Shown here: positions 3,562 to 26,555 of the stretch, in pieces
Layout: every line of letters begins with the position of its first letter
Position numbering within the stretch: the first letter of the stretch is position 1
From: an uncultured Anaerolineales bacterium
GTDB lineage: Bacteria > Chloroflexota > Anaerolineae > B4-G1
Length of the DNA: 64,000 bases
Direction: 5' to 3'
NCBI GenBank assembly: GCA_964551295.1
Contig: CAZKDJ010000002.1
Span: 1,096-65,095, forward strand
Notes under the pieces: model-generated
Told to the model about the DNA's origin: nothing
Databases searched by the model: none
Seen by the model: only the letters and a program-made list of their open reading frames with translations
Translations under genes and position numbers: made by a program

Positions 3562-3570
3562 TGGTATACT
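3562..3570 (+). promoter_or_regulatory. Possible extended -10 element (TGGTATACT) upstream of the vWA gene
   Basis: TGnTATACT at 3562-3570. No convincing -35. About 105 nt upstream of ATG 3676. Confidence 0.3.
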
Positions 3571-3587
3571 CTCACTATCTGAAACTT

Positions 3588-16478: not shown

Positions 16479-16570
16479 ATGGCGGGCTGCCTCTGGCTGA
16501 CGACCGGTACTCGCAAGCTAGAATTTGCAAATTCTTTGAAGTCGAATACAATAGCAAACTTGAGCGCGAA

Positions 16571-16672
16571 GTATCATCTCAATAATCCGGGGGGCGGGGG
16601 GGGGGGGGGGGGGGGGGGGCCCCCCCCCCCCCCCCCCCACCCCCCATCTTCCCCTATTTATTGAGAAGATAC
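16571..16672. mobile_element. MITE copy 1 (102 bp) with an 8-bp target-site duplication AGCGCGAA
   Basis: TIRs GTATCATCTCAATAA (16571-) and the reverse complement GTATCTTCTCAATAA (-16672). Identical AGCGCGAA at 16563-16570 and 16673-16680. The core is a G/C homopolymer palindrome. Confidence 0.75.
16589..16645. repeat. Homopolymer palindrome G6-C-G24 / C19-A-C6
   Basis: Direct count: G 16589-16594, C 16595, G 16596-16619, C 16620-16638, A 16639, C 16640-16645. Confidence 0.9.
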
Positions 16673-16690
16673 AGCGCGAATTTAATCTGA

Positions 16691-18778: not shown

Positions 18779-21289
18779 ATGAGATGGCTCAAGACGAATC
18801 TCTGTAAACCCATTTGGTTAATTGACATAGGGGTTTTTCTACTCTATTGCTCGCTTGCAGTGGTCATGACCTGGCCCGTGGCCGAGTATCTGACCACACG
18901 TCTCATCGGACATGGCGGTGATACTTACGTCCACTACTGGAACAACTGGTGGATCGGCCAGGCCCTGGCGCGGGGAACCAGTCCATATCATACCGACCTG
19001 TTGTTTCACCCTAACGGAGCCAGCCTCGTCTATCACAACTTTGGCTGGCTGAACATCGCCGGGGCGTTGGCCTTAAAGCCTCTGGCAGGCCCGGTGGGTG
19101 CCTACAACATTGTCTTTTTGCTCAACATCGCGCTGTGTGGATACGCGATGTACAATCTGGCAGGGTGTCTTTTGCACAGTCGTTCCGCTGCCTTTGTGGC
19201 CGGGCTGGTCCACGCCTTTTGGCCCTATCGTTTCATCCACGTCGATCACCCCAATCTGGTCTGCACGCAATGGCTCGTCTGGCTTCTGCTGTTTCTGATA
19301 CGGGCGGTGCGCGAGGGCGGGCGGCGCCACGTCTTGCTCGCTGCTCTATTCCTCATCCTGACGGCTTTTGCTCGCTTGCAGCTTTTCGTCCTGGCGCTCT
19401 TTCCGGCCGCGATCTGTCTTCTATACAGCCTGTTTGCCGAACGCGAGTGTTGGAATCGGCGAACCTGGTGCCGATTGGTTCTGATCGGCGCGTTGACCAT
19501 GGTTGTGCTGGCCTATCCACTTTTCCCATTAGTGCGCGAACAACTCGCAGGCGATTATCCCGATGACGTCTTTATCGACGAGCAGTCTGAGAATCAAACG
19601 GACTTGCTTGCTTACATCTTGCCCAACACCAACCACGCCCTACGCAAGCGGTATCTTCCGGATATCCTGGAAACCCACGTGGCGTTTGTCGGTTACACCG
19701 TTCTGGCGGTGGGGGTCTATGGCGCCTTTCGCGCCGGTCGGGGCGCTCGCTTGTGGGTGCTGATTGCCGCATTTAGTCTTGGCATGGCCTTGGGGCCCTA
19801 TCTCAAGGTGGGCGGAAAGGTCTACCCCGGAATACCCACGCCCTACCGGCTCATCGGCTGGAGCTTTCCCGTGCGCATCCTGCGCAACCCGCATCGCTTC
19901 AATATTCTGCTGGCTGTGCCGGTGGCTGTTCTCGTGGGCTATGGAGTTCATTATCTATCGCAATCAAAGTGGCGCGCCCGCCTGGTTCCCTTGCTGATGG
20001 CCGGGCTGGTCCTGTTCGAGTACCTGCGCACGCCCGTGCCCACGGCGAGACTGCAATACTCTCCCTTTTACGACCAACTGGCTGCTGAATCAGAGTCGTT
20101 CGGTCTGTATGACCTGCCGATGGGGTTCAGCGGCCCGGCCAAGTTCTACATGTATCTCCAGACGGTCCACGGCAAGTCCATCGTTCAGGGCAAAATGGCG
20201 CGGCCAACCCGGTGGATCAATGACTTTATCGACGGAGATCCCTTTACAGAGGGTATGCGGCTGAACGACAACAAAATAGATCCCGAACTGACGGCCGTGT
20301 CGCGCCACCTGGCCTATCTGGCCGATGCCGACGTGCGCTACCTGATCATGCACCGCGAGCCGGCGTTTCGCAAGTACCCGGAATATCCGTTCACCGAGCA
20401 ATGGGCCGAGTGGCAGGATTGGCTGACGATGGCGCCACTCTATCAGGACGATTTGATCGCCGTCTACAACACGCGTCCTCGCTACGGGCATGACTTTGAG
20501 TTCGATTTCGACTTGGGTGCCGACGTGGGCATCATTCAGGTTGGTTCTATGCCCACCTCCTTGGGTCAAGGTGACGTCATGGATTTGGATGTGCATTGGG
20601 GCAACCGAGGGGCGCCGGAGCGAGATTTGCTGGCTCGTCTGTCGCTGGTGGACGAGGCCAGCGAGGTTCAGCAGTCGCTGGAGTCGCCGCCCTGCGCCGA
20701 TTGGCCGACCGGCGATTGGCCGGATGGCGCGATCGCTATCGGCCGTTATCAGTTCCAGGTAGACCCTCACTTGCCGCCGGGTCGGTACGCTCTGACGGCC
20801 GAGTTGGTCGATGTCGGTCAACCGGCTGTTTTGGCTTACCTCGATATCGCTGCGTTGACGCGGGTGTTCGAGCCGCCCAGCCAGATGGAGCACACTGCTG
20901 GCGCTCGTTTCGGGGACGACCTGCGGCTGCTGGGGTACGACCTGACTCAAGAAGGCGATACGTTGGAATTGACCCTGCACTGGCAGGCCCTTCGACGGCC
21001 GACCGCTTACTACAAGGTATTCGTGCACCTGTTCGATCCGCAGACGGATGCCGTCGTCGCTCAAGATGATGCGGTCCCCCGCCGCTGGACGTACCCGACG
21101 ACGTGGTGGGAGGCCGGCGAGGTGGTGAGCGATGGGATACCACTGTCAGTGGAGAAAGTGCCCGCCGGGCGGTATCGCTTGGCGGTTGGGGTGTACCATC
21201 CCGAAATTGGCGATAGACTCCCGGTTTCTGGCGCGACGCTGGCTGTGCTCTCCGATGCCCTCGTCTTGCAGGAGGTCATAGTGCCGTGA
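18779..21289 (+). CDS. GT-C-like polytopic membrane protein, class B, with 2 C-terminal modules
   Basis: VVMTWPVAEYLTTRLIGHGGDTYVHYWNNWW. Modules contain VHWGNRGAPERDLLARLSLVD and LTLHWQALRRPTAYYKVFVHLFD...YPTTWWEAGE. Confidence 0.82.
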   Translation: MRWLKTNLCKPIWLIDIGVFLLYCSLAVVMTWPVAEYLTTRLIGHGGDTYVHYWNNWWIGQALARGTSPYHTDLLFHPNGASLVYHNFGWLNIAGALALKPLAGPVGAYNIVFLLNIALCGYAMYNLAGCLLHSRSAAFVAGLVHAFWPYRFIHVDHPNLVCTQWLVWLLLFLIRAVREGGRRHVLLAALFLILTAFARLQLFVLALFPAAICLLYSLFAERECWNRRTWCRLVLIGALTMVVLAYPLFPLVREQLAGDYPDDVFIDEQSENQTDLLAYILPNTNHALRKRYLPDILETHVAFVGYTVLAVGVYGAFRAGRGARLWVLIAAFSLGMALGPYLKVGGKVYPGIPTPYRLIGWSFPVRILRNPHRFNILLAVPVAVLVGYGVHYLSQSKWRARLVPLLMAGLVLFEYLRTPVPTARLQYSPFYDQLAAESESFGLYDLPMGFSGPAKFYMYLQTVHGKSIVQGKMARPTRWINDFIDGDPFTEGMRLNDNKIDPELTAVSRHLAYLADADVRYLIMHREPAFRKYPEYPFTEQWAEWQDWLTMAPLYQDDLIAVYNTRPRYGHDFEFDFDLGADVGIIQVGSMPTSLGQGDVMDLDVHWGNRGAPERDLLARLSLVDEASEVQQSLESPPCADWPTGDWPDGAIAIGRYQFQVDPHLPPGRYALTAELVDVGQPAVLAYLDIAALTRVFEPPSQMEHTAGARFGDDLRLLGYDLTQEGDTLELTLHWQALRRPTAYYKVFVHLFDPQTDAVVAQDDAVPRRWTYPTTWWEAGEVVSDGIPLSVEKVPAGRYRLAVGVYHPEIGDRLPVSGATLAVLSDALVLQEVIVP

Positions 21290-23784
21290 AAGACCGGCGA
21301 CGGGTTTTGTGGACGTGTGGGGGAGTTCTCCTCATATACACGCTACTGTCGTTAGTGATGACGTATCCTGCGATTACCCAACTGTCCACGCACCTGCTTG
21401 GGGATACGACAGACGTGTATATCAACCCTTGGGCCAACTGGTGGACGATGAAAGCCCTGAGGGAAGGGCTTGATCTCTACGAGATGAACTATTTGTTCTA
21501 TCCACGCGGTGTACACCTTCACTTTCACAGCTTCAGCCACGTCAACACTCTTTTGTGGATACCGCTGGCACCTTTGCTGGGCGACATCGCGGCCTATAAT
21601 CTGACCGTATTGATCTCGTACCCATTGGCTGCTTTCGCGATGTATCTGTTGGCCAAAGACCTGGAGCTGTCCGGTCCTGCCGCTTTTCTTGCGGGTCTGG
21701 TGTATGGCTTTTCGCCTTACCACTTGGCCAAGGCGGATAATCCTGTGCTCTGTAGCACTCAATGGATTCCATTGTTTGTCCTCTTTTTCTTGCGCGGGAT
21801 ACGCGAGAAGGATTTACGCAGCAGCGCACTCGCTGCCATTTTTATGGCTCTTACGGCGTTGACGAGTTGGCATCTGATGACACTGACCAGTATGTGGGTG
21901 GGGGTGTATTTACTTTACAGTGTCGCATTCGAAAGAAACATGTGGGATCGCCGAGCTCTGCACGCACTCCTGTTGACTGTTGCGCTTAGCGGCTTGATCC
22001 TGGTGCCGTTCCTGTATCCATTGGTGCGAGAGGTGCTGACGGTGGATCAACCATATATAGCGCGCCCCGATATGGCAGGCAACGACCTCCTCGCGTTTTT
22101 CGTGCCGGGGCCGGGCCATCCATTTCTGGGCGCTCTCCTGCGCCCAATTCACTCGAATCTGAGGATGCTGCCTGGGGCTGGGCGCACTCCACCGGTGTAC
22201 GTGGGCACGGTCGTTTACCTGTTGGCCCTGTGGGCTGCAATAAAGAGATGGCGCAAAAGCCTTTTCTGGTTGATGGCCGCGACTGTGTTTGCCTTTTTCT
22301 CCCTTAATTCTCCGCTGACGATCAATGGTGTCAGGTTAGAGCGGCTGCGTCTACCGCGGCCCGGTTCGATTATGGGGATAATCTCTTATCCTTTTCGATT
22401 CAACGATCTCTTTGCATTCAACCTTGCCATTCTTGGAGCCATAGGGTGGGATACGCTGCAAGTGCAGTTGCAGGCCAAGTGGTCAAGGGTTTCTCCAGCT
22501 TGGACCACGGGTGCGCTCGCTGTGTTGCTGCTATTTGTTTATGCAAAAATTCCGTTTCCAGCAGTTGAGCTTCAGACCCCTGCATTCTACGATCGATTGA
22601 GTGACGAGGAGGGGGATTTTGGCATCATCGAGGTACCGATGGGCCGTGCCAGGGAAAAGCGATACATGTTCTTTCAGATGTATCATGGCAAGAAGCTTGT
22701 AGGGGGGACTATATCTCGTCCCCCTCGTGACGCCTGGGATTTCATGGACACGGTGCCGATACTTCGTGCCATAAACCATACCGGCAAACCGCCGGATCGT
22801 GCCACCTTTGGCGTACGAGAGCAACTGGGAGAACTCGCGGCCCAGGATATTCGGTATTTGATTTTCCATGCGGATCAGCTTTCGGACGAGCGGTTGACTC
22901 TCTGGAAGGCGTACCTGGCTGTTCCTCCCATCTGTGAGGATCCTGTGGTGTATGATACGGCGTCTGACTTTGCGCCGCGCTGGCAGGCCAGCGACGATTT
23001 AGTGATACTGGACGCTGAGTGGATACCTGGCGATATCTCCCAAGCCGGGTGGGGAGAGCTATCGGTGACCTGGCTGGCGGATCGGCCACCAGAGAGGGAT
23101 CTAGACGTACGTGCGTCGTTTGTGGATGATGAAGGGCGGGTGGCTCAACGCGAGTTGTTTCGAATAGGCGATGAGGATTGGCCGACTTCGAAATGGCCTG
23201 TGGGGGCAGCGGCGACGTACGTGTATCCCATGCAGATTGGGCCGTTCGTCCGGCCAGGTGAGTATGCACTCGTGTTGGAGTTGGTCGATTCGGTTTCCGG
23301 GCGGATGCATGGAGATCCGGTGACCATCGGAAGGATTGAGGTTGCTGCGCTGCCACGGGTGTTTGCTCCTCCCACTGTGATGCACGCGCTATCTGTAGAC
23401 TTTGGAGACGATATTGCCCTGTTGGGATACGATGTCGAGCAAGGCGATGAAGTGTTACGATTGACGCTCCACTGGCAGGCCAGAAGAAAGATGGACGTCT
23501 TTTACAAATTCTTTGTGCATTTGTACGACGTGGATAGCGGCGCTTTGGTGGCGCAAACGGACGTGGTCCCGCGTGACTGGACCTATCCCACGACGTGGTG
23601 GGAGGCCGGCGAGGTGGTGAGCGACGAGATAATCCTATCGCTGAAGGATGTGCCGCCCGGACAATACCAACTGGCGGTTGGGATGTACGACCCGGAAAGG
23701 GGTGAGCGTCTGCTCGTCGTGGACGCTGCGGGAGAGGAGTTGCCCGGCGGGCGGTTGGTGCTGCCAGAGGAGATCGTGCGGTGA
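21286..23784 (+). CDS. GT-C-like polytopic membrane protein, class B (lower-GC subclade), with 2 C-terminal modules
   Basis: GTG 21286 overlaps TGA (GTGA). LVMTYPAITQLSTHLLGDTTDVYINPWANWW. Second module contains LTLHWQARRKMDVFYKFFVHLYD...YPTTWWEAGE. Confidence 0.82.
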   Translation: MKDRRRVLWTCGGVLLIYTLLSLVMTYPAITQLSTHLLGDTTDVYINPWANWWTMKALREGLDLYEMNYLFYPRGVHLHFHSFSHVNTLLWIPLAPLLGDIAAYNLTVLISYPLAAFAMYLLAKDLELSGPAAFLAGLVYGFSPYHLAKADNPVLCSTQWIPLFVLFFLRGIREKDLRSSALAAIFMALTALTSWHLMTLTSMWVGVYLLYSVAFERNMWDRRALHALLLTVALSGLILVPFLYPLVREVLTVDQPYIARPDMAGNDLLAFFVPGPGHPFLGALLRPIHSNLRMLPGAGRTPPVYVGTVVYLLALWAAIKRWRKSLFWLMAATVFAFFSLNSPLTINGVRLERLRLPRPGSIMGIISYPFRFNDLFAFNLAILGAIGWDTLQVQLQAKWSRVSPAWTTGALAVLLLFVYAKIPFPAVELQTPAFYDRLSDEEGDFGIIEVPMGRAREKRYMFFQMYHGKKLVGGTISRPPRDAWDFMDTVPILRAINHTGKPPDRATFGVREQLGELAAQDIRYLIFHADQLSDERLTLWKAYLAVPPICEDPVVYDTASDFAPRWQASDDLVILDAEWIPGDISQAGWGELSVTWLADRPPERDLDVRASFVDDEGRVAQRELFRIGDEDWPTSKWPVGAAATYVYPMQIGPFVRPGEYALVLELVDSVSGRMHGDPVTIGRIEVAALPRVFAPPTVMHALSVDFGDDIALLGYDVEQGDEVLRLTLHWQARRKMDVFYKFFVHLYDVDSGALVAQTDVVPRDWTYPTTWWEAGEVVSDEIILSLKDVPPGQYQLAVGMYDPERGERLLVVDAAGEELPGGRLVLPEEIVR

Positions 23785-26555
23785 GAAAAGCGCTTGATTC
23801 GTATCCTCTCAATATTCTGGGGAAAATGGCGAATGTAGGTCGGATTTGCTATCCGACCAGGCAGCGGTTAGCAAAACCGCCCTACATCTGCCCCGATTTA
23901 TTGAGAAGATACCTTGATTCCATCCTGCGCTTTGTCCGCCGTTCGGGCGTCCGGGACTCGCTGGTGGCTCTGCTCATCTATGTGCTGATCGCGATCGTGG
24001 TATTCTATCCGGTCGCATTTCACTTGAACTCGGTTATCGCCGGGTTCACCGGCCGTGACGGCTGGGAGCACGCCTGGTGGCTCTGGTTCGCTCGGCGGTT
24101 GTTCTTGCAAGGGCGTGGCCTGGGTGACCTGTATCTGCTCAACCATCCCGTTGGCTTGCAGCACCCTTACCAGTGGTCGCTTGTGAGTTACAGTCTGATC
24201 GCCTCTTCTTTGTCGAGCCTTTTTCCGCCCGCAGCGACGTACAACTTGATGGTGTTGAGTTCCTTCGTCCTGGGCGGCTTGGCTGCCTATCATCTGTGCC
24301 GGGAGCTGACGGGAGAGCACTGGCCTGCCGTGGTGGGCGGCGCGATCTTTGCCTTTTGTCCCAATCGGTTGGGCCATGCCTTGGCCGGCTGGCTGCCTCA
24401 GATGACGGTCTACCTATTCCCGTGGTACGCTTTGCTCCTGATCCGCACGCTGCGCCGCCCGACGTGGCGACGTAGCCTCGGACTGGGGATACTGGCGGGG
24501 ATGGCGGCCTTGATTTGGCCCATTCATCTGGTTTTCTTCATGGTGCCTGTCACGCTTGTCGTCGTTGGAGAGAATCTGGTGCGCCGCAGACGCGCTTTCT
24601 TCGAGGACCGCCGGGTTCTTTACCTGGGGTTGGCGTTTGGCATTGCGCTGTTGATGGCATTGCCATTTCTGCTGCCTGTGGTTTTAGGACGATTCGAGGG
24701 AGAGACCGACTACCTGGCGATGTCGGGTTTCGTAGAGCATTCCACCGACCTACTGGCCTTTTTCACACCTTCTCCTTACCATCCCGTCTTGGCCTCTCTC
24801 GGGCTCGTCCCCTCATTTGCCCAGCGCGTGTTTGCCGATCCAGGGGCTCTGAGAGCCGGGTTGGCTTATCCCGGCCTGATCGCCGTGCTGCTGGGGGCGT
24901 GGGGTATTCTGAAGGCTCGACCAAGACCTTGGTCGTGGCTCGTGCTGGCGGTGGGCGCTGCTGTCTTATCCCTGGGCCCGATCCTCGTCGCAGGCGGAGC
25001 GCCGGTTCAGTACACGGTCGACGGCTACCGCACCTACGTCTCGATGCCCTACGCGCTCGCGCAGTTTGTGCCTTTCCTCGATTGGGTCCGCACGCCCGGG
25101 CGCATCAACACCACCGGGATGCTGGGTCTCGGCGTGCTGGCCGCTTTTGGCGTGAAGGCGCTCGTAGCTCGCTTTTCGGCCCGGCGCTGGTTCGTCGTTT
25201 CGTTCGCTCTGGTCATTGTGGCCCTCGTCGTCTTTGAATACCTGCCGATGTGGCCTTTTCCGGCCGGCGACGCCTCTATCCCTGCCGCGATTCAGTACAT
25301 TGCCGGTAGCCCCGGTGACGGTGGACTGCTGCACATCCCTATGCGCCGCCGCAGCGTCAACAACCGGGCACTGTACTTTCAGACGGCCGCTGCCCGGCCC
25401 ATCGTCGGCGGCATCGTGCTCCGTACACTGCCGGATGTCCCGCCTTGGCAGGAGACGATCGAGGGGCTGGCAAAGGCCGACCCCTCGCCTGATGTGGTTT
25501 CGCGCCCTTCTGTGGCCCAGCGACGGACTTGGTTGAATCACTTTGATGTTGATTGGGTTTTGCTTCACCGTTTATATCCAGGCGATGAAGAGCGGTATCG
25601 TCCCTTTGTGGAGGAACTGCTGGGGCCTGCGGTGGTGGAGGACGAGACGTTGATCGCTTTTTCTGTGCCCGCCGACGGTCCGGCTCCGGGAGATTCGCGC
25701 CTCTATACCTTTAGCCAGTACGGATGGCACGCGCCGGAGCAGGATGGGGACGTGTGGCGGCGATGGATGTACAACGATGGCCGGTTGTACGTCTACTCTG
25801 CAGTTGAGGAGACAGGCAGCCTGCGTCTCACGGTGGATTCCCACCTGGCGTTCCCCGTGTTGGAGGTGTACTTGGGAGAGCGGTTGGTGGACACCTTTGT
25901 AGTGGGCGAGCGCACCGCGTACACCACGCGCCCGTTCACCCTCACACAGGGGATGAACGTCTTGCGCTTCCACGCGCCCGGCGGGTGCCCCGACGTGTTG
26001 GACGATCCCCGCTGCTGGGGCGACGCGCTGCTCGATCCACCCGCGGGCGATGGTACGCCTCCCTGCGACACGCCGGTGACTTGCCGCACGTTTGTGTTCG
26101 ACGACGTGTCCTTCATCTCGCAGAGTGATCTGCCTGCGGGTGCGGCGCTCGACGTCAACTTTGGCGGCCAGGTGCGCCTGCGCGGCTGGGAGCTGGAGAA
26201 CGAACGAGTGCGTCCGGGCGACACGCTGACGATGACGTTGGCCTGGGAGCCGGTGGTCGAATTGAACGATACGTACGTCGCGTTTGTGCACGTGATGGCC
26301 GCCGATGGCTCATTAGTGGCTCAGCACGACGGGGCGCTGGTGGGGGAACGCATCCTTCCATCGGCCTGGCCGGCGGGAGCTGTCTTTCGCTATCCGGTGC
26401 CCCTCGAACTCCCCGCTGACTTGCCAGCGGGTGACTATCGACTCCTGGCCGGCGTCTATCTATGGCCGGGCCTGGAGCGGCTGCCGGTGCTCGCGGGCGT
26501 GCCGGGGGCCGAGGACGACGTGATCGAACTGGGAACAGTGAGGGTCGCGCCGTGA
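23781..26555 (+). CDS. Divergent class-B GT-C-like membrane protein with a distinct Cys-containing beta-sandwich-like region and 1 C-terminal module; N-terminus carries a 40-codon MITE-derived insert
   Basis: GTG 23781 overlaps the upstream TGA. FTGRDGWEHAWWLWF first loop. Module LTMTLAWEPVVELNDTYVAFVHVMAADGS. An internal restart (for example ATG 23826 or TTG 23901) cannot be excluded. Confidence 0.75.
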   Translation: MRKALDSYPLNILGKMANVGRICYPTRQRLAKPPYICPDLLRRYLDSILRFVRRSGVRDSLVALLIYVLIAIVVFYPVAFHLNSVIAGFTGRDGWEHAWWLWFARRLFLQGRGLGDLYLLNHPVGLQHPYQWSLVSYSLIASSLSSLFPPAATYNLMVLSSFVLGGLAAYHLCRELTGEHWPAVVGGAIFAFCPNRLGHALAGWLPQMTVYLFPWYALLLIRTLRRPTWRRSLGLGILAGMAALIWPIHLVFFMVPVTLVVVGENLVRRRRAFFEDRRVLYLGLAFGIALLMALPFLLPVVLGRFEGETDYLAMSGFVEHSTDLLAFFTPSPYHPVLASLGLVPSFAQRVFADPGALRAGLAYPGLIAVLLGAWGILKARPRPWSWLVLAVGAAVLSLGPILVAGGAPVQYTVDGYRTYVSMPYALAQFVPFLDWVRTPGRINTTGMLGLGVLAAFGVKALVARFSARRWFVVSFALVIVALVVFEYLPMWPFPAGDASIPAAIQYIAGSPGDGGLLHIPMRRRSVNNRALYFQTAAARPIVGGIVLRTLPDVPPWQETIEGLAKADPSPDVVSRPSVAQRRTWLNHFDVDWVLLHRLYPGDEERYRPFVEELLGPAVVEDETLIAFSVPADGPAPGDSRLYTFSQYGWHAPEQDGDVWRRWMYNDGRLYVYSAVEETGSLRLTVDSHLAFPVLEVYLGERLVDTFVVGERTAYTTRPFTLTQGMNVLRFHAPGGCPDVLDDPRCWGDALLDPPAGDGTPPCDTPVTCRTFVFDDVSFISQSDLPAGAALDVNFGGQVRLRGWELENERVRPGDTLTMTLAWEPVVELNDTYVAFVHVMAADGSLVAQHDGALVGERILPSAWPAGAVFRYPVPLELPADLPAGDYRLLAGVYLWPGLERLPVLAGVPGAEDDVIELGTVRVAP
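23801..23912. mobile_element. MITE copy 2 (112 bp) with an 8-bp target-site duplication CTTGATTC, inserted in frame in the 5' end of the next gene
   Basis: TIRs GTATCCTCTCAATAT (23801-) and the reverse complement GTATCTTCTCAATAA (-23912). CTTGATTC at 23793-23800 and 23913-23920. The core holds two REP-like hairpins (TCGGATTTGCTATCCGA and GCGGTTAGCAAAACCGC) inside an ATGTAGG/CCTACAT stem. Confidence 0.8.

Follow-up and report, generated by a model that had tools for sequence, protein, structure and literature searches.

Evidence for a recent in-frame insertion of an IS66-type miniature inverted-repeat transposable element into a membrane protein gene of an uncultured Anaerolineales bacterium

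Is a 112-bp repeat that lies within the first codons of a membrane protein gene a transposable element absorbed into coding sequence, and if so, is the lengthened protein made? The question is raised by a 64,000-nucleotide stretch of DNA (the window) from an uncultured Anaerolineales bacterium of the Chloroflexota (GenBank assembly GCA_964551295.1, contig CAZKDJ010000002.1, positions 1,096 to 65,095). Here the forward-strand gene at 23781-26555 encodes a polytopic membrane protein of 924 amino acids (aa), ancestrally 884 aa, as deduced from its GTG start, the listing of open reading frames (ORFs) and the alignment of its homologues. An initial annotation had proposed that a MITE (miniature inverted-repeat transposable element) at 23801-23912, bounded by 8-bp target-site duplications (TSDs), adds 40 codons to this gene. 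The best explanation in our analysis, to which we assign a probability of about 0.82, is that a MITE derived from an insertion sequence (IS) of the IS66 family inserted recently and in frame, and that ribosomes read through it from the native GTG.

On re-reading of the sequence, the coordinates, termini, TSD, reading frame and GTGA coupling to the upstream gene given in the initial annotation all agreed. The element lies on the forward strand and is flanked on both sides by the perfect repeat CTTGATTC, at 23793-23800 and 23913-23920, the right copy being evident from direct reading and from DNA alignment with empty sites. Its left end reads GTATCCTCTCAATAT and its right end, ATTTATTGAGAAGATAC as written on the forward strand, reads GTATCTTCTCAATAA when reverse-complemented, with a match at 13 of 15 positions. 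The inverted repeat first described as 15 bp long is thus real, but its length has to be revised, as the conserved terminus comprises 22 bp, GTATCnTCTCAATAnnnnGGGG (23801-23822 and 23891-23912 by match to the family consensus). With 112 bp and no transposase coding capacity, the element is within the size limit of prokaryotic MITEs (less than about 300 bp). We classify it as non-autonomous and IS66/ISBst12-type from its termini, which correspond to the family consensus and to the ends of autonomous elements, and from near-identical copies at two other loci (L051 and L103).

Between the ends lie two arms of a palindromic core (23828-23855 and 23865-23892) that are 82% complementary. A repeat search recovered 28-nt terminal and core inverted repeats, the inner hairpins GGTCGGAT/ATCCGACC and an ATGTAGG/CCTACAT stem. 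Of the paired hairpins with mutually complementary loops that had been annotated here, the hairpins and the stem therefore exist, but the predicted minimum-energy fold of the whole element as RNA is one single long hairpin (-49.6 kcal/mol, z = -4.97). The loops are complementary because the core is one long imperfect palindrome, each arm of which holds a sub-palindrome. Scanning 23500-24200 for promoters and terminators returned no site; the element resembles neither a donor of sigma-70 promoters nor an intrinsic terminator.

Relatives preserve the same locus without the element. The homologues nearest to the 924-aa protein have lengths of 879-886 aa and cover 95-96% of it, and in the N-terminal alignment the 40 residues are missing from all 43 other homologues; P0002, for instance, reads VRRVLDSILRLVRRPG where the window reads VRKALDS, 40 aa and ILRFVRRSG. 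Orthologues sharing the 40 codons, the observation that the initial annotation had named as speaking against an insertion, were accordingly not encountered among these 43. Two proteins of the same 90% cluster, P0121 and P0122, have 884 aa (924 minus 40) and start with VRRVLDSILCLV and VRRALESILRFV, respectively; they represent genuine alleles without the MITE and do not stem from a different choice of start codon. At the DNA level, contig L120 reads GGTGAGGAGAGTG-CTTGATTC-TATCCTGCGC, with one 8-mer and a gap of exactly 120 bp relative to the window. The same 120-bp gap is present in four syntenic contigs (L243-L246), which have a nucleotide identity of 86-88% across 16-25 kb and a protein identity of approximately 90%, and in which the 8-mer takes the form CTCGATTC (L244-L246) or CTTGAGTC (L243). 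Where the window has a second copy of the family, three of them (L243, L244 and L245) are likewise empty and contain AGCGCAAA once. Empty sites in relatives, whose existence the initial annotation had implied, were thus found for both copies, each with a single 8-mer. Given that these sites are empty at 86-88% identity, both insertions are younger than that divergence, and the 112-bp insertion, as judged from these alignments, is young. The filled allele occurs in three records, namely two JGI contigs and the 65-kb NCBI contig of a metagenome-assembled genome (MAG), the protein of the latter belonging to the 90% cluster named above.

The element belongs to a large family. A genome scan, which used one genome per species and called for both termini at MITE spacing, yielded at least 119 loci, with 125 copies among the matches listed, and a metagenome scan with a single terminus yielded at least 120 loci. 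Wherever a listed genome locus had an informative title, this title named a Chloroflexota MAG (Anaerolineae/-ales, Chloroflexaceae, Caldilineales, Ardenticatenales or Thermoflexales); one MAG, DSAR01, holds more than 30 copies. The 125 listed copies measure 90-115 bp, and copies 98-99% identical to the 112-bp subtype are found at other loci (L051, and twice in L103). A scan of viral contigs with the terminus gave 0 matches. Perfect 8-bp direct repeats abut the termini in 75 of the 125 listed copies and repeats with one mismatch in 11 more, versus 0-1 matches of 124 when the right flank was shifted by 2-20 bp as a control; 8 further copies match at an offset of +1, consistent with 9-bp duplications. 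All but one of the 75 perfect TSDs (74) are distinct sequences, which, together with their register, rules out that the 8-mers are part of a longer repeat. Among the metagenome matches listed, 52 elements were MITE-sized, and 41 of the 50 testable ones carry a TSD that is perfect or has one mismatch. The nucleotides GGGG at positions 19-22 of the terminus are 93-96% conserved although they lay outside the search pattern, indicating that the functional terminus extends to approximately the 22 bp given above. The perfect TSDs have a G+C content of 41%, versus 58.5% for the loci overall, and the target preference across 85 reconstructed empty sites is weak, with AT-richness at the centre of the TSD as its sole sign. 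The majority of copies are found between genes or a short way upstream of them, and few lie inside long ORFs.

The metagenome scan also revealed an autonomous partner with the same ends and 8-bp TSDs, as the initial annotation had anticipated. Among the matches listed, approximately 13 distinct elements of 1.76-2.34 kb are bounded by the 22-bp ends GTATCTTCTCAATAAnnnGGGG, and two of them, L211 (GCATTTTC) and L160 (TGGAAATC), have perfect 8-bp TSDs. Each long element contains one ORF of about 555 aa, the encoded proteins being 53-61% identical to that of L211; this 1.67-kb ORF fills the elements of 1.76-1.9 kb and leaves no room for tnpA or tnpB. All five proteins tested matched the Pfam domain DDE_Tnp_IS66 (PF03050) with 39-56 bits against a cutoff of 23.1 bits. 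The partner transposases are divergent IS66 members. In having a single ORF, 8-bp repeats and a length near 1.8 kb, the long elements agree with the ISBst12 group of this family. An experimentally active member of the group, ISDge4 of Deinococcus geothermalis, likewise has a single ORF and 8-bp direct repeats, with terminal inverted repeats (TIRs) GTGACTACTCAGCA and GTAACTGCTCAGCA (PMC12898284). The partner/MITE terminus GTATCTTCTCAATA agrees with these two at 9 and 10 of 14 positions, respectively. Long elements and MITEs have the 22-bp ends in common and nothing beyond, and it is from these shared termini that we propose that an IS66-family transposase would mobilise the MITE in trans by binding them.

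In the 119 genome-scan loci, no autonomous element was found via widely spaced termini, orphan termini or multi-copy segments; the orphan termini are MITEs with a mutated partner end. A 510-aa ORF between MITEs in L097 was considered as a transposase and rejected, as it encodes an M32 carboxypeptidase. At L234 (3003-6006), an IS66-like element is split by an IS3-like insert (orfA-like, FTPEFKAKVVLEVISGQKT), and its transposase aligns in two pieces.

These data also decide whether the 112 bp could be something other than a transposon, i.e. a conserved structured RNA, a palindrome of the REP/BIME type or a conserved protein segment. The strong fold and the REP-like appearance of the sub-hairpins would suit such an origin. 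However, a scan of the entire 64-kb window at Rfam gathering thresholds matched zero families, leaving the structured-RNA reading unsupported, the 8-bp TSDs differ from site to site, and no other aligned homologue has the 40 residues. The precise empty sites and the transposase-encoding elements with the same termini refute a non-transposon origin, to which we give practically no credence. The label 'REP-like' of the initial annotation holds as a resemblance only, since TIRs, TSD and a DDE transposase partner set the family apart from REPs. Its central claim, a MITE absorbed into coding sequence, is well founded as regards MITE identity, which is supported by copies, TSDs, empty sites and the IS66-family partner.

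What the copies share at their ends they do not share in between. The cores of 137 copies, which represent 92 unique sequences, form at least 34 clusters without sequence relationship, the 112-bp copy of the window being in cluster 5 and the second window copy in cluster 2. Most cores (79%) fold far better than shuffled controls, with a median z of -5.1. With at least 34 unrelated, mostly hairpin-forming cores between the same termini, the cargo would seem to be irrelevant to transposition. This family-level pattern, one conserved 22-bp end combined with many unrelated hairpin cargos, is the most interesting residue of the analysis. We tentatively suggest, while considering it the less probable case, that it represents an undescribed Chloroflexota-wide MITE superfamily in which a strictly conserved IS66/ISBst12-type terminus of 22 bp was repeatedly joined to unrelated cargo. 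Should this be true, it would imply either that MITEs are recurrently born de novo when palindromes are captured between two ends bound by the transposase, or that hairpin cargo is selected for; MITEs of this kind would not originate by simple internal deletion of a parent IS, and single copies would remodel protein N-termini or damp translational coupling in tandem gene arrays.

Some cores have a layout in common. Clusters 5 and 10 (window 23823-23890, L004, L040 and L057) share the order ATGTAGG, hairpin, hairpin, CCTACAT, and their stem and loop sequences differ by compensatory changes. Other cores reuse host-specific palindromes, such as CGTTCCCACGCTCTGCGTGGGAACG in L093 and L114. The shared layout and the palindrome reuse hint that the structure of the cargo is under selection or that palindromes are captured.

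How, then, is the interrupted gene translated? The insertion point is within codon 7, behind the 20th nucleotide of the gene. Element and one TSD copy add 112 + 8 = 120 bp without a stop, so that the ORF reads MRKALDS, 40 aa and ILRFVRRSG in an unbroken frame. Only one of the six frames of the element is stop-free, and this is the frame in use. Family-wide, 29 element-frame combinations fall in stop-free ORFs of at least 200 codons, and only 6 of these, the window copy included, have a frame-preserving length; most of the combinations reflect insertion directly upstream of a gene. The ORF is intact and, along its entire length, colinear with its orthologues, and the 924 codons contain no frameshift or stop. 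The native initiation region (23767-23784, forward strand) is conserved in all orthologues and consists of a Shine-Dalgarno (SD)-like GAGGAG at 23767-23772 and the GTG at 23781-23783, which together with the TGA stop of the gene before it forms the overlap GTGA. This upstream gene (21286-23784, forward strand) encodes an 832-aa paralogue, and the GTGA-coupled arrangement is the same in syntenic relatives. In partition-function folding with versus without the MITE, the probability of being unpaired was 0.51 vs 0.51 for the SD and 0.26 vs 0.25 for the start region, the MITE being predicted to form its own hairpin inside a pre-existing loop.

The insertion duplicated CTTGATTC; we propose that the 120 bp entered in the only stop-free frame of six, leaving SD, GTG start and GTGA coupling intact and their predicted accessibility unchanged. 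With the initiation region in this state, ribosomes most likely still begin at 23781 and read across the hairpin. They would thereby make a 924-aa protein with an N-terminal tail, presumed cytoplasmic by the positive-inside rule, that is lengthened by 40 residues ahead of the first transmembrane segment (TM1, approximately residues 58-80). The insert is basic (7 K+R versus 2 D+E, net +5) and not hydrophobic, with a maximal 19-residue Kyte-Doolittle mean of 0.35 versus 2.83 for TM1. The extension is probably tolerated and near-neutral. Within the MITE framework, we regard read-through combined with tolerance as somewhat better than an even bet.

The same MITE could instead leave translation of the functional protein to a start within or behind it, with the stretch from GTG 23781 reduced to an incidental leader peptide. 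In-frame candidates are present: ATG 23826, 3 nt past the GGGG, lies in a predicted internal loop (probability unpaired 0.84), TTG 23901 would give a product of the ancestral 884 aa, beginning MRRYLDSILRF, and GTG 23964 follows downstream. Each of them, however, shares the frame of the native SD and GTG, which are intact, and ribosomes that start upstream would pass through it in any case. Moreover, the fold pairs the GGGG ahead of ATG 23826, and a spacing of 3 nt is short; TTG 23901 lacks an SD and is entirely base-paired (probability unpaired 0.00); and GTG 23964 is mostly paired (0.07) and would delete the whole basic tail. We therefore consider initiation downstream of the native GTG unlikely.

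The sequence around TTG 23901 has a further peculiarity. The first 20 nt of the gene, GTGAGAAAAGCGCTTGATTC (23781-23800), resemble the right end of the MITE together with its TSD, TTGAGAAGATACCTTGATTC (23901-23920). Insertion beside an end-mimicking sequence (GTGAGAAAAG, like the right end TTGAGAAGAT) was considered and rejected, as the 85 reconstructed empty sites show no flank motif. The lack of a family-wide flank preference and the full pairing of TTG 23901 indicate that the resemblance is a coincidence.

A third possibility is that the insertion has silenced or crippled the gene, through a hairpin that impedes translation or an N-terminus that is misfolded or mis-targeted, and that the ORF is still intact owing to recency and to the presence of about 20 paralogues. 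The array of paralogues is highly redundant, a very stable hairpin lies near the start, and the insertion is young by the near-identity of copies elsewhere and its absence from the relatives described above. The tail is, besides, an outlier in length, with 75 residues before a conserved YPV motif where homologues usually have 31-39. Yet the frame observed is the sole one of six without a stop, no effect on the initiation region is predicted, the basic and non-hydrophobic insert fits the presumed orientation of the tail, and the filled allele is found with an intact ORF, 924 codons without frameshift or stop, in more than one sample. On balance, silencing seems to us more improbable still than a downstream start.

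Several observations nevertheless weigh against read-through of an IS66-derived MITE as the full explanation. Passage of ribosomes through a hairpin of -49.6 kcal/mol located 21 nt past the start is assumed. The outlying tail length means that the allele could be mildly deleterious. As the chance of meeting an open frame is about 1 in 6, the open frame is weak evidence of selection, and as the loss of one gene among about 20 paralogues may be neutral, the intact ORF may merely reflect recency. The IS66 parentage is affected as well. The TIRs of IS66-family elements typically begin with GTAA, a hallmark of the family in ISfinder, whereas the partner ends begin with GTAT. NCBIfam transpos_IS66 (NF033517) is the best match of the partner proteins but scores 99-119 bits against an equivalog cutoff of 180 bits. 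No transposase copy was found either in the window or among the loci of the genome scan, the latter being MITE-only by design. Finally, most IS-sized metagenome copies have no matching 8-bp flanks (L124, L138, L153, L172, L174, L177, L182, L212 and L226); such flank mismatches may have arisen where multi-copy repeats were assembled into chimeras or where copies recombined with each other.

The second MITE copy of the window is 102 bp long, lies on the forward strand in an intergenic position (16571-16672) and has a core of another subtype with a poly-G/poly-C hairpin. It is flanked by perfect 8-bp duplications, AGCGCGAA, at 16563-16570 and 16673-16680, recognised in the sequence and in the alignment with the empty sites of L243, L244 and L245. 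A terminus motif of 14 nt is present 5 times in the window, where 0.23 occurrences are expected, and thus exceeds chance; two of the extra matches are the ends of this complete second copy. A terminus-like match at 3564-3577, GTATACTCTCACTA, deviates at 2 positions, lacks both a partner end and a TSD, and was set aside as probably a chance occurrence. The core of the second copy (16590-16650) consists of a run of about 28 G followed by a run of about 25 C, and L091 (1520-1616) is similar, while siblings at other loci read GGGGGGTGTGCGGGCGGC...GCCGCCCGCACACCCCCC. This core may result from an error of sequencing or assembly at a GC hairpin of extreme stability, with poly-G calls from both directions as a possible route, or else from true homopolymerisation. 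The GGAGG SD of a PKD/beta-helix gene (start at about 16703) follows 12 nt downstream.

The interrupted gene is part of an array (window positions of about 11800-63540) of approximately 20 tandem paralogues on the same strand that encode polytopic membrane proteins of 560-1100 aa. Many of these genes are joined by 4-nt stop-start overlaps (GTGA), and the array is syntenic in L243-L246. Pfam matches in the array are weak (PTPS_related, DUF6311 and DUF2079, with PMT/PMT_2 in relatives). For the 924-aa protein itself, the match to PTPS_related stays below threshold (23.4 vs 26.4 bits), and some homologues match DUF6311.

The locus documents a natural in-frame MITE case for which filled site, empty sites, sibling copies and autonomous parent are all available, in a source lineage, uncultured Anaerolineae-type Chloroflexota, whose mobile elements are poorly catalogued. 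It connects ISBst12, a branch of IS66 that has been little studied, with a large MITE family and defines a 22-bp end that is presumably recognised by the transposase. For annotation, it illustrates that elements of this family inflate or distort gene calls, be it as 924 instead of 884 aa or as spurious ORFs over intergenic copies, and they are likely break points and sources of chimeras in Chloroflexota MAG assemblies. In-frame MITE fusion as such is a known phenomenon: a 2024 review, which documents it for RPEs, ERIC and QMITE1 and also names Anabaena MITEs, calls in-frame fusions from intragenic MITEs 'not unusual' (PMC10969869). The 112-bp insertion is thus a clean but ordinary example, and since absorption of MITEs in frame is already established, it changes no general concept. 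With respect to novelty, we found no description of this MITE family, or of any IS66-derived MITE family in Chloroflexota, in the open-access literature on Chloroflexi MITEs, ISBst12 and IS66, and the 2024 review mentions neither IS66 nor Chloroflexota.

Compared with known systems, the family is closest in its partners to the ISBst12 group (ISDge4, and ISBst12 of Geobacillus stearothermophilus), with which these share a single ORF, DDE_Tnp_IS66, 8-bp repeats and a size of 1.8-2.3 kb. It differs from that group in that the window MITE has no transposase and only the 22-bp ends in common, in that the hosts are Chloroflexota, and in that the partners are divergent (PF03050 only) and have GTAT rather than GTAA ends. 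REP/BIME elements are likewise small G+C-rich palindromes, and some cores of our family contain host-specific palindromic units; but REP/BIME elements have no TIRs and no TSD and are linked to RAYT (Y1), not DDE, transposases, whereas the window MITE family has TSDs, TIRs and a DDE partner. The RPEs (Ogata et al. 2000), to the extent that they are covered in the 2024 review, offer a likeness of another kind, a short palindromic mobile element that enters in frame, adds a peptide and keeps the ORF. As portrayed there, RPEs are very frequent in ORFs and encode a conserved peptide (PMC10969869), while the present family has no ORF enrichment, one open frame of six, and clear TIRs, a TSD and a DDE partner. 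ERIC, QMITE1 of Coxiella burnetii, the Anabaena MITEs and Correia elements are similar in being non-autonomous, with TIRs, TSDs, a hairpin transcript and occasional translational fusions (PMC10969869, PMC5896051), and are set apart by other parent IS families, other TSD lengths and other hosts.

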